From Eledone cirrhosa (lineage: Eukaryota): a stretch of DNA of 64,000 nt. Under the pieces are notes generated by a model. The model did no database searches. It saw only the letters and a list, made by a program, of their open reading frames with translations, and had not been told where the DNA came from. Location: contig OZ024746.1 of assembly GCA_964016885.1 (NCBI GenBank), positions 27,218,001 to 27,282,000 on the forward strand, in the 5' to 3' direction. This document shows positions 18,147 to 61,596 of this stretch, piece by piece (position 1 is the first letter of the stretch; every line of letters starts with the position of its first letter). The position numbers and the translations under genes were made by a program.

Positions 18147-18303
18147 AATAACATTCGATTCGTTTGCAATCATACAAACAAACCTCAATTTTATGGCCAT
18201 GTCAGTAGAATGAACACTTCATTCTTGCTCTTATGTTAGCATGCGAACAGAACTGCAGACACTAATGTTTCTGGGTATCACCCTTCATCAGTACAGCTCA
18301 CTG

Positions 18304-39500: not shown

Positions 39501-40203
39501 AGAGAGAGAGAGAGAGAGAGTGTGTGTTTAGATGCTTACCTGATGGACAGACCCTGTAATTTAAAGTGTCAACCCTACCACACTCTGTGTTATGCTGAAT
39601 CTCCCTGAGAATTACATTAAGGGTGCACGTGTCTGTGGAATGCTAAGCAATTTACACTTTAATACAATATGGACACTATGGACTATACATGTAATTTAAA
39701 GTCCTAGCTTTGTGAAACATTGTGCCACGCTAAATCTCGCCTAGAATTAACGTGACATCATCACGCGCTTCCACGTTCATTCCATGAGCAGCTTGTTCCA
39801 CTCATCGAACAGCTGGGAAACTCATCGTAGAATCCGACAGAGGCCCCTTCAGTTCCAGTATCTAATGATGCACCATATATAATGTGTCCCTTGCTATTAT
39901 GTGAAATCCGACACAGAGACGGAGGAAAACGACAAAAGACATCTATATATATTAATCCACGTATATCAGATAACATATCAGGTGATGACAAAAAATGTGT
40001 CCTATTACTCAGGACATAAATTAGTATACATTTTAGATTATGATGAATACATCATTAATTAATTATCTTTGTGCATCCACTCCACGCCTCCCAGGACAAG
40101 TTGCAAGCCCATCGCCAGTTCTTGTGGTGTAGGATGGAAACTGCAATATATTTTTCGAACAATGTCCTTTACCTAAAGCCTGAACGCCTCCCTTGCTATC
40201 ACG

Positions 40204-40254
<51 letters not shown>

Positions 40255-40264
<10 letters not shown>

Positions 40265-40515
40265 TGTATATATAGTGTATTTTGCAATACACTGTACGCT
40301 TAATTAAAAGCACTTCGAAGACCTTACGCTATTGTTTTAGAGTAGTGACAGTCTCACTTACTTTAAATTTTCCGCAAACAGGGGAGACTGTCATTACTCT
40401 AAAACAATAGCGTAAAGTCTTCGAAATGCTTTTAATTAAGCATACAGTGTATTTCAAAATACACTATATATACATTTATATATATATATATCGCTATTTC
40501 AGAGCACCAATTCTA
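40255..40515. mobile_element. Fold-back fragment of family G (no HHR retained)
   Basis: Inverted arms tgtattttgcaatacactgt...gtgacagtctc; same family as 60812-61450. Confidence 0.78.
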
Positions 40516-41276
40516 ATTTTTATATATATATAAATGAAAATATAGAAATTAATGTGAGCAAGAAGCCAACAGTATTTGATAATATATAAGTGACTATAAC
40601 GTCAAAATGGAAAATAATTAACGTAAGATATGGGAAAATAATTCAAACTCAATTCAAAAAAATCAAGACAGAGATTTTATCCACAGATTTTGTGAAATCC
40701 AGGGAAAAAACCAATAGAATCTTAACTCAGAATAAAATAAAGTTTAAATACTCATCCTTCAATTTAGAAAAACTACAAATGCTCTATATAGTCTTAAAAA
40801 GACTATTTCTCGAAACTTTTCAGTGGTATTAGTCACGGTAGGAATCGTTCCTCAGTAGAGCTCTACACGATAACCAAAATACCACTGCCAAAATATGCCA
40901 AAAAGGGAATTTAAAAGTAGGCTAGTTCACCTCGTGCGGAATTATGAAAATAAACACACATGGAGAAACATGGCTGGTGACGTCAGAATGAGACGAATGT
41001 CTATTTACAAGAAACAGCAGTCAAAAACATTCCGAAAAAGCTCTACAAAATGTAAGGAGTTCAGCAAAATAGCAATAAAAAAAAATAAGACCGGGATTAT
41101 TCACAAATAATTTTAAGCACTCTAGGAAAAATTCCGAGTATAAATATAAAAATATATATATATTTCCAGTTCCTCGTAGGACTAACAACACACCCAGGAG
41201 CTGGACATATCGATGAATTGACAGAGTGGAACACATTTCAATACCATGTTTACCTGTTCTCTCTACATTAATTCGT

Positions 41277-58686: not shown

Positions 58687-58877
58687 CGACGGAAGTGTGG
58701 TAAGGAACTAGATGGACCATAACGCAGCAGACTACTCAATACTTAGGGTAGTAGAGTGGGTAATAGGAAAATGTTCAAGATCCCGACGGCAGAGCTCAAG
58801 CCGTCTCGACGGCTATTTCAGTCCAGAAATAGCCGTAGAAACGGCTTGAGCTCTGCCGTCGGGGTCTTGAACATTTT

Positions 58878-59481: not shown

Positions 59482-59614
59482 CGAAGGAAATGTGGTAAGG
59501 AACCAGGTGGACCATAACGCACCAAAGTACTCAATACTCAATACACCAAAGTACTCAATACTTGAAATTAGCCGTCGAAACGGCTTGAGCTCAGCTGTCG
59601 GGGTCTTACTGGTT

Positions 59615-60017: not shown

Positions 60018-60171
60018 CAAGATTATACCAGTTTTAAACTTGTAAGACCATTATTCAGCAGACTACTCGATACTTGGGTTAGTAGAGTATATTTCAGGCC
60101 GACGGCAAAGCTCTTGCCGTTTCGACTGGAATTTGCTGTCGAAGTAGCAAGAGCTTAGCCATCGGACCCAG

Positions 60172-60597: not shown

Positions 60598-60908
60598 GGA
60601 AAAATTTGAACAGGGACAAAACAGAGAGGCAGTACAACAAATGTTTATTAATTTCACGCTCTGGAGAGTGGGGTGTTATATATATATAAGAATTGGTGCT
60701 CTGAAATAGCTATATATATATAGCACAGGTTGCAAGCCCATCGCCAGTTCTTGTGGTGTAGGATGGAAACTGCAATATATTTTTCGAACAATGTCCTTTA
60801 CCTAAAGCCTGAATAGTGTATTTTGCAATACACTGTATGCTTAATTAAAAGCATTTCGAAGACCTTGGGCTATTGTTTTAGAGTAGTGACAGACTCACTT
60901 ACTTTAAT

Positions 60909-60999
60909 TTTCAGCAAACAGGGGAGATAAAGCTGACAGGGTCCTGTTTCGCATTTATTGATGCTTATCAAAGCCAACTACTCCTCCTGTTTGCTGAAA
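60909..60999 (-). ncRNA. Type I hammerhead with U3-A8 core and extended stem I (family G)
   Basis: GGCT-TTGATAA-GCATCAATAAATGC-GAAA-CAGG-AC-CCTG-TC-AGCT (60931-60975); stem I extended by TTCAGCAAACAGG/CCTGTTTGCTGAA. Confidence 0.85.
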
Positions 61000-61249
61000 T
61001 CATGGATGTTTGGTTCTTATAGAATTCTAGTAAATAATCAGGAACTGATTATACAGAGCGGTTGCCGGTCAAGCAGAAATTGAAAATTAAAATTGGTGTT
61101 CTGAAATAGCTATATATATATGAATGTATATATAGTGTATTTTGCAATACACTGTATGCTTAATTAAAAGCATTTCGAAGACCTTAGGCTATTGTTTTAG
61201 AGTAGTGACAGACTCACTTACTTTAATTTTCAGCAAACAGAGGAGATAA

Positions 61250-61294
61250 AGCTGACAAGGCCCTGTTTCGCATGTATTGATGCTTATCAAAGCC
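61250..61294 (-). ncRNA. Second U3-A8 hammerhead (family G)
   Basis: GGCT-TTGATAA-GCATCAATACATGC-GAAA-CAGGGCCTTG-TC-AGCT. Confidence 0.82.
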
Positions 61295-61451
61295 AACTAC
61301 AAGGTCTTCGAAATGCAGGGCCCTGTCAGCTTTATCTCCCCTGTTTGCTGAAAATTGAAGTAAGTGAGTCTGTCACTACTCTAAAACAATAGCATAACAT
61401 CTTCGAAATGCTTTTAATTAAGCATATAGTGTATTGCAAAATACACTATAT

Positions 61452-61596
<145 letters not shown>

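Follow-up and report, generated by a model that had tools for sequence, protein, structure and literature searches.

RESULTS

Anatomy of the insertion

The window (the whole 64,000-nt stretch of Eledone cirrhosa DNA that was analyzed) contains an insertion with two co-oriented type I hammerhead motifs on the minus strand (Table 1). The earlier note had described these as lying 319 nt apart, with UUGAUAA cores, a 4-bp stem II, and GUC sites, and all of this was confirmed from the sequence: the C17 residues of the two GUC sites are exactly 319 nt apart, both cores read UUGAUAA with a Watson-Crick U3-A8 pair, and both stems II are GCAU/AUGC (4 bp with a 6-nt loop). The other residues of a type I core are in place as well (U4 G5 A6 N7 and A9; G12 A13 A14 A15.1; U16.1; an NUH site). 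The internal loop and long stem I noted for copy 1 also hold, with a 4-bp proximal part, a 5x4 internal loop, and a 17-bp extension, and the 91-nt fold has a z score of -5.8. Copy 2 is without the extension through 5' truncation, the extension being a family feature. An origin of the long stem I of copy 1 as a by-product of inversion was ruled out, as it is present in nearly all family copies.

The 5-bp stem III proposed earlier was rejected because five pairs would leave a 2-nt loop; in the monomer, stem III is 4 bp plus a tetraloop. The stem III sequences are ACAGGACCCUGU in copy 1 and ACAGGGCCUUGU in copy 2, 12-nt near-palindromes that are drifted versions of the family palindromes ACAGGGCCCUGU / ACAAGGCCUUGU. 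A motif scan matched the window 5 times and 20 shuffled windows once in total, and the window hammerhead motifs are beyond chance. Rfam returned a weak HH9 match for copy 1 (21.6 bits against a gathering threshold of 52; E value, 0.084) and did not report copy 2. Three further hammerhead motifs in the window, at 18291 (-), 13970 (-), and 1848 (+), have canonical C3-G8 cores and belong to other families; two of them recur in other genomic loci examined.

The sense sequence of the insertion is 488 nt long, or ~1.5 units. The ~319-nt tandem spacing claimed in the earlier note stands, but there is only one full cleavage-to-cleavage monomer, and the direct repeat at the locus measures 169 nt (97% identity). 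The inverted arm, the tail, and the foreign piece listed in Table 1 were absent from that description. No ORF of at least 110 amino acids was found at the window insertion.

TABLE 1 Features of the window insertion and of a second insertion of the same family
Feature	Position in window	Strand	Size, composition, or basis
Inverted 5'-truncated arm, from stem III palindrome to tail-less 3' end at TA/CA microsatellite	61316..61456	+	141 nt, 94% complementary to 61125-61265
15-nt junction snippet, an inverted piece of the unit (template jump)	61301..61315	+	Direct sequence reading
Upstream hammerhead (copy 2), stem I truncated	61254..61300	-	Core U3-A9 61290-61284; stem II 61283-61270; GAAA 61269-61266; stem III 61266-61255; C17 61254
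Full cleavage-to-cleavage monomer, non-coding	60935..61253	-	319 nt, 34% GC; family monomers 314-323 nt, 24 distinct tandem pairs
Downstream hammerhead (copy 1), complete, extended stem I	60910..60998	-	Core U3-A9 60971-60965; stem II 60964-60951; GAAA 60950-60947; stem III 60947-60936; C17 60935
3' partial unit; its three conserved hairpins mark a candidate region for protein binding and for the start of reverse transcription	60813..60934	-	Double changes at 2 of 22 predicted pairs across 8 sequences of subfamilies A-F
Foreign piece in place of part of the TA tract	60722..60812	-	91 nt, 97.8% identity to window 40093-40183
TA tract and 25-nt Penelope-type tail, ending in (TA)n	60686..60721	-	Sequence reading, repeat comparison
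Second insertion of the same family: inverted pair without ribozyme, one arm tailed	40251..40520	.	Window comparison

The source of the foreign piece sits just past the (TA)n of the second family copy, 20 kb off, and gene conversion or local templated repair between these copies probably accounts for the shared 91 nt. Related hairpin relics with inverted arms and adjoining (TA)n lie at window positions 58783-58868, 59566-59607, and 60099-60160; these are perhaps another decayed family of the Penelope-like element (PLE) type. A splice-donor-like motif (GTAAGT/GTGAGT) lies at window positions 60901-60896 (-), ~33 nt past the cleavage site, and is kept in 6/6 subfamilies; PLE repeats are known to carry introns.

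A dispersed family of non-coding units

A DNA search of the 3.0-Gb genome returned 1,906 candidates, and the best 40, which were scored, had 96 to 98% identity. Units are arranged head to tail and measure 314 to 323 nt (24 distinct tandem monomers), with six in a row at one locus; copies are often 5' truncated and often have an inverted partner. Subfamily A is the window type. Subfamily B (211 matches) has an additional A before GAAA, subfamily C has GCUU/AAGC as stem II, and subfamily D has ACAUGUCAUGU as stem III; all four carry U3-A8. Subfamilies C and D together gave 1,065 pattern matches, with a strand imbalance (699 forward versus 366 reverse) that suggests one or more large C/D tandem arrays. 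Across disjoint searches, the whole superfamily exceeded 2,000 pattern matches, and the window monomer, at 34% GC, lies under the 45% expected of non-LTR retrozymes. The cleavage site triplet is GUC in subfamilies A to D and F and GUU or GUC in subfamily E. On sequence grounds, the locus is thus a dispersed copy of a non-coding family with the tandem ~300-nt units and type I hammerhead of non-LTR retrozymes.

Covariation of the 3-8 pair

Exact patterns in the A/B context matched 495 U3-A8 sites genome-wide, and no site with C3 was found in that context. With the C/D pattern, which is disjoint from these, 99 of the first 100 matches listed of the 1,065 were U3-A8. A wider A-D pattern yielded 12 non-U3 sites with A8 (6 C3, 4 A3, and 2 G3) and 23 sites without A8 (15 G8, 5 U8, and 3 C8), all of the latter U3, and no C3-G8. 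In clade A-D, therefore, ~1,550 U3-A8 sites stand against 35 mismatched ones (~2%), an approximate ratio given that the patterns differ slightly. The comparison of genomic copies that had been proposed in the earlier note accordingly establishes U3-A8 as the fixed state of the family. This pair retains the Watson-Crick character of the 3-8 interaction, which positions residue 8.

A homologous sister clade, EF, is 70 to 75% identical to A-D; the locus that revealed it holds a relative with 74 to 80% identity and a canonical CUGAUGA core. Unit and anatomy are the same as in A-D. The clade gave 486 pattern matches, and of the first 100 in the list, counted by eye, 77 were C-G, 11 U-A, 5 U-G, 1 C-A, and 6 other (Fisher P = 7e-10, with copies that are not independent). 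Subfamily E has the canonical C3-G8 core (CUGAUGA) and subfamily F has U3-A8, which makes U3-A8 the state of 5/6 subfamilies. In a tree with positions 3 and 8 masked, EF and A-D fell on either side of a fully supported branch (length, 0.325; support, 100%), and the U3-A8 group F had 94% support. For this tree, 154 rows were extracted, and 68 of 128 rows with genuine upstream sequence were used, each class being limited to 9. Three subfamily A copies whose stem II is mutated carry the label E in the tree and group with A.

The helices vary together in the hammerhead register. Among 34 distinct rows, 94.6% of cells in the hammerhead structure were paired and 12/30 pairs had double changes, compared with 40 to 51% of cells paired for slid controls; because the rows were picked by class, these counts should not be read as frequencies. 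Stems I, II, and III all covary (stem I being open), and pair 15.4-16.4 of stem III is G-C, A-U, or U-A with the palindrome preserved. Where stem II usually begins with G10.1-C11.1, subfamilies E and F (L143-L192) often have mismatched U·U or A·A. It is important to note that the 3-8 swap requires at minimum one double change and that few events, in masters related to one another, underlie the covariation counts. The ten core positions invariant in the six subfamily majority sequences have a chance probability of ~0.013, and the extraction patterns required most of them.

Because the sister clade has the canonical C3-G8 and the helices covary throughout, the U3-A8 swap is, judged from alignment, a real compensatory change. 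Helix covariation and the fixed U3-A8 would fit selection on the hammerhead fold. The earlier note had drawn its argument for selection from the paired change in the two window copies; these are not independent evidence because the U3-A8 core is inherited, both copies having it from one master. The swap would have arisen in a master lineage and then been inherited by all copies.

A profile search for an outgroup with which to root the tree, run over the genomic loci examined and the window, gave only rearranged A-F copies. One tentative polarity is that U3-A8 is ancestral and that the C3-G8 of subfamily E is a reversion by way of a mobile U3·G8 wobble, C3·A8 never having spread. Parsimony favors it because it needs one double change, not two, if the root lies between A-D and E/F, and we regard it as possible rather than probable.

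The U3·G8 lineage and probably decayed cores

Within subfamily B, a clade of ten units (97% support) has U3·G8 in 9/10 and occupies five separate insertions, two of them multi-unit. The U3·G8 sample was enriched by the search for G8, the tree includes the upstream signature site, and one locus (L194) was unmatched. As the clade occurs in five insertions, the wobble template was copied several times, and a Watson-Crick 3-8 pair is then not strictly needed for mobilization. Unpaired 3/8 combinations, which the earlier note had named as evidence against a compensatory core, do exist in this sense as a lineage in at least five loci, but the consensus stays U3-A8. At the C3·A8 loci that have a second unit, the partner is U3-A8 in 4/4, and C3·A8 looks like decay after insertion.

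G8 and A8 units are mixed within single insertions at L035 (G000:C2:83.74 Mb) and L040 (G000:C4:296.0 Mb), and L040 combines a B-type and a C-type unit that are both U3·G8. U3·G8 was rejected as a mark of subfamily B as a whole, being present in 7/100 of the first matches listed and marking a small clade. A-to-I editing of an RNA intermediate was likewise rejected as the source of G8: sense A>G changes numbered 32/7,984 and T>C changes 33/7,472 (P = 0.71), and in clade A-D alone there were 25 A>G and 14 T>C (P = 0.15).

The spreading wobble bears on whether the ribozyme matters to the element at all. The same element could carry a ribozyme that is dispensable or nearly inactive, its fold kept for protein binding or RNA stability and its U3-A8 merely inherited, which would qualify our preferred explanation. 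The U3·G8 lineage, tandem units included, and the frequent stem II mismatches of E and F would both be expected in that case; moreover, in vitro insertion was unimpaired by hammerhead mutants (PMC11167929), and minimal PLE hammerheads are poor at cleavage (PMC4209133). We nevertheless consider a dispensable ribozyme unlikely, for all large subfamilies have a Watson-Crick 3-8 pair, the three stems covary in the hammerhead register, and the C3·A8 mismatches resemble decay after insertion next to U3-A8 partners.

Folding and state of the window copy

The hammerhead fold of copy 1 has a predicted energy of -36.2 kcal/mol, compared with -37.9 kcal/mol for the minimum, whereas that of copy 2 is -7.5 kcal/mol against a minimum of -21.4 kcal/mol (91 nt). 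When the insertion is folded in full, its inverted arm is predicted to cover the copy 2 cleavage site with a 141-bp hairpin. Folds with both hammerheads lie 31 to 38 kcal/mol above the minimum and, with the arm removed, still 15 to 17 kcal/mol above it. The window double hammerhead (-100.2 kcal/mol) is less stable than the two separate hammerheads (-102.4 kcal/mol; minimum, -117.3 kcal/mol) and is disfavored at this locus because both stem III palindromes have drifted.

Elsewhere in the family, stem III is palindromic or nearly so in all subfamilies, with self-duplex energies from -6.9 to -24.3 kcal/mol; hairpins are weak or absent. For 7/7 tandem pairs of other loci, the double-hammerhead fold was more stable than two monomer folds, by 4.5 to 15 kcal/mol; it was the minimum-energy fold in only 1/7 dimers.

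The earlier note expected cleavage at both sites of the locus to release a ~319-nt monomer. Such release is unlikely here, given that the upstream ribozyme is predicted to be caught in pairing with the inverted arm, and the window insertion is probably dead; a 319-nt RNA is instead a prediction for intact master copies. That the locus is a live source, transcribed and releasing a 319-nt linear or circular RNA, is accordingly quite improbable. Both cores are intact, a full monomer lies between two GUC sites, and copy 1 folds within 1.7 kcal/mol of its minimum, but these points are set against the missing stem I extension of copy 2, the arm over its cleavage site, and the drifted palindromes with their unfavorable double-hammerhead energies.

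Insertion marks and a putative Penelope-like partner

The marks of PLE insertion were all found in the family: 5' truncation, partial tandems, inverted arms, (TA)n targets, and an optional tail. Insertions stop at (TA)n in one of two places, the internal TA tract or a point ~25 nt beyond it; the 25-nt tail is shorter than the 30 to 40 nt in print. Inverted head-to-head pairs made up 65 of 102 distinct insertions, and the tail was present on exactly one arm in 57/65, on both in 1/65, and on neither in 7/65 (P = 1e-10); a few near-duplicate loci are among those counted, and the window was scored as "neither" because its tail is displaced. This one-sidedness suggests that each DNA strand was primed once, the two starts lying at different internal sites. 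The three hairpins of the 3' region are kept across A-F.

The genome is rich in PLEs, with 10,594 GIY-YIG candidates (150 scored) and long ORFs that carry reverse transcriptase (RT) and GIY-YIG domains. In one autonomous PLE (L123), a 938-amino-acid ORF lies between two repeats 4,979 nt apart (- strand, 670 and 5649); each repeat has a U3-A8 minimal hammerhead, and the (TA)n end is at a similar distance from the hammerhead as in the retrozyme. Loci L123, L124, L128, L131, and L134 form one autonomous PLE family with a long ORF; the minimal hammerhead of its terminal repeats is U3-A8, with A7 and a 4-nt palindromic insert in stem III. A second PLE family (L111, L113, L138, and L142) has a U3-A8 hammerhead-like motif with GCAA for GAAA in all copies seen. 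We found no DNA homology between the retrozyme and autonomous PLEs in 40 PLE loci (of the 150 scored among 10,594 candidate sites).

The anatomy of PLE insertion and the U3-A8 hammerheads in PLE repeats of the same genome might also be expected if the sequence were a pLTR, the terminal repeat that remains when an autonomous PLE is 5' truncated, and not a stand-alone retrozyme. We consider this very improbable: the units stand head to tail at 314 to 323 nt without an ORF between them, and they lack homology to the 40 PLE loci compared. The reading of the locus as a satellite or local DNA duplication whose hammerhead-like motif arose by chance, which AT-rich and repeat-rich surroundings and an Rfam score under the gathering threshold might evoke, is refuted by the genome-wide dispersal, the canonical-core sister clade, the covarying helices, the PLE insertion marks, and the shuffle control.

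From the observed family with its core states, helix covariation, and manner of insertion, the locus is very likely a retrotransposed copy, probably inactive, of a non-LTR retrozyme. Such an element would be a non-autonomous Penelope-like element with a ~319-nt unit and one type I hammerhead per unit. We propose the following cycle for such a retrozyme. Intact tandem master copies would be transcribed, and neighboring hammerheads would pair through the palindromic stem III into a double hammerhead, possibly aided by a PLE protein. Cleavage past GUC would then give unit-length RNA, which could circularize. The PLE reverse transcriptase/GIY-YIG protein would nick (TA)n DNA, and reverse transcription would start at one of two internal sites ~25 nt apart, 130 to 165 nt downstream of the cleavage site. 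The expected products would be more-than-unit, 5'-truncated, and often head-to-head insertions.

DISCUSSION

Relation to known systems

Neither the chemistry nor the element class is new, and the U3-A8 variant is not surprising. Several natural U3-A8 hammerheads have been described, with in vitro activity known from earlier work (PMC3088659), and the Cercyon PLE elements of Schistosoma mansoni carry the variant in ~1,300 matches (PMC4209133). Non-LTR retrozymes of ~300 nt yield circular RNAs in coral, mussel, and axolotl (PMC7229834), and retrozymes have been tied to PLE repeats in a study in which 1/9 dimers was cleaved and 8/9 were not (bioRxiv 10.64898/2026.07.22.740005). Dimer cleavage through a palindromic stem III has been reviewed (PMC6765202).

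The family resembles the metazoan non-LTR retrozymes in its non-coding ~300-nt tandem units, low GC content, one type I hammerhead per unit, dispersal, and presumed dependence on PLEs (PMC7229834; bioRxiv 10.64898/2026.07.22.740005), and it resembles those of axolotl in a short stem III that favors dimers. It differs from the metazoan retrozymes in having U3-A8 in 5/6 subfamilies, a longer palindromic stem III of up to 12 nt, and strongly PLE-like inverted insertions with a one-sided tail. With the Cercyon hammerheads it shares the U3-A8 covariation, the palindromic stem III, a dimer-dependent design, and nearby opposite-strand motifs. The Cercyon motifs, however, are described as minimal, heterogeneous, and mostly single (PMC4209133), whereas the unit here has a 4-bp stem III, an internal loop, a long stem I, and a 319-nt ORF-less tandem arrangement. 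The hammerheads of Perreault et al. (2011) show the same core covariation but in scattered examples (PMC3088659), and here it occurs in one homologous family, as C-G, U-A, and U·G.

For insertion, the closest parallel is PAc, a Poseidon PLE of Anolis. PLEs generate inverted 5'-truncated copies whose tail is often one-ended (PMC8557442), and the tail has been traced to two internal reverse-transcription start sites (PMC11167929); PAc has the two start sites that are proposed for the family and shares with it the optional tail, the AT-rich targets, and the tandem and inverted insertions with an often one-ended tail. In contrast, PAc is autonomous and C3-G8, with a ribozyme that depends on protein for cleavage (PMC11167929), and the element here encodes nothing.

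The literature search, which covered main texts, found no account of the family or of a spreading U3·G8 lineage, and the word "ribozyme" is absent from the main text of a recent octopus repeat annotation (PMC13282606). The element class and the core variant are already known; the family, in which C-G, U-A, and U·G lineages occur together, seems to have no earlier description.

Implications

The family adds a U3-A8 retrozyme superfamily to the animal catalogue. It also offers, free of engineering, a natural set of homologous ribozymes (with U-A, C-G, and U·G cores and three kinds of palindromic stem III) for the study of the 3-8 pair, dimer folding, and the role of cleavage in PLE-driven mobility. 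If U3-A8 is ancestral, the family would be a fossil record of the two-step swap of a catalytic tertiary pair in a ribozyme, and retrozyme surveys with descriptors based on C3-G8 would miss whole families, here of >1,500 copies. Further, the one-sided tails of 57/65 inverted pairs put a number on a known PLE trait.
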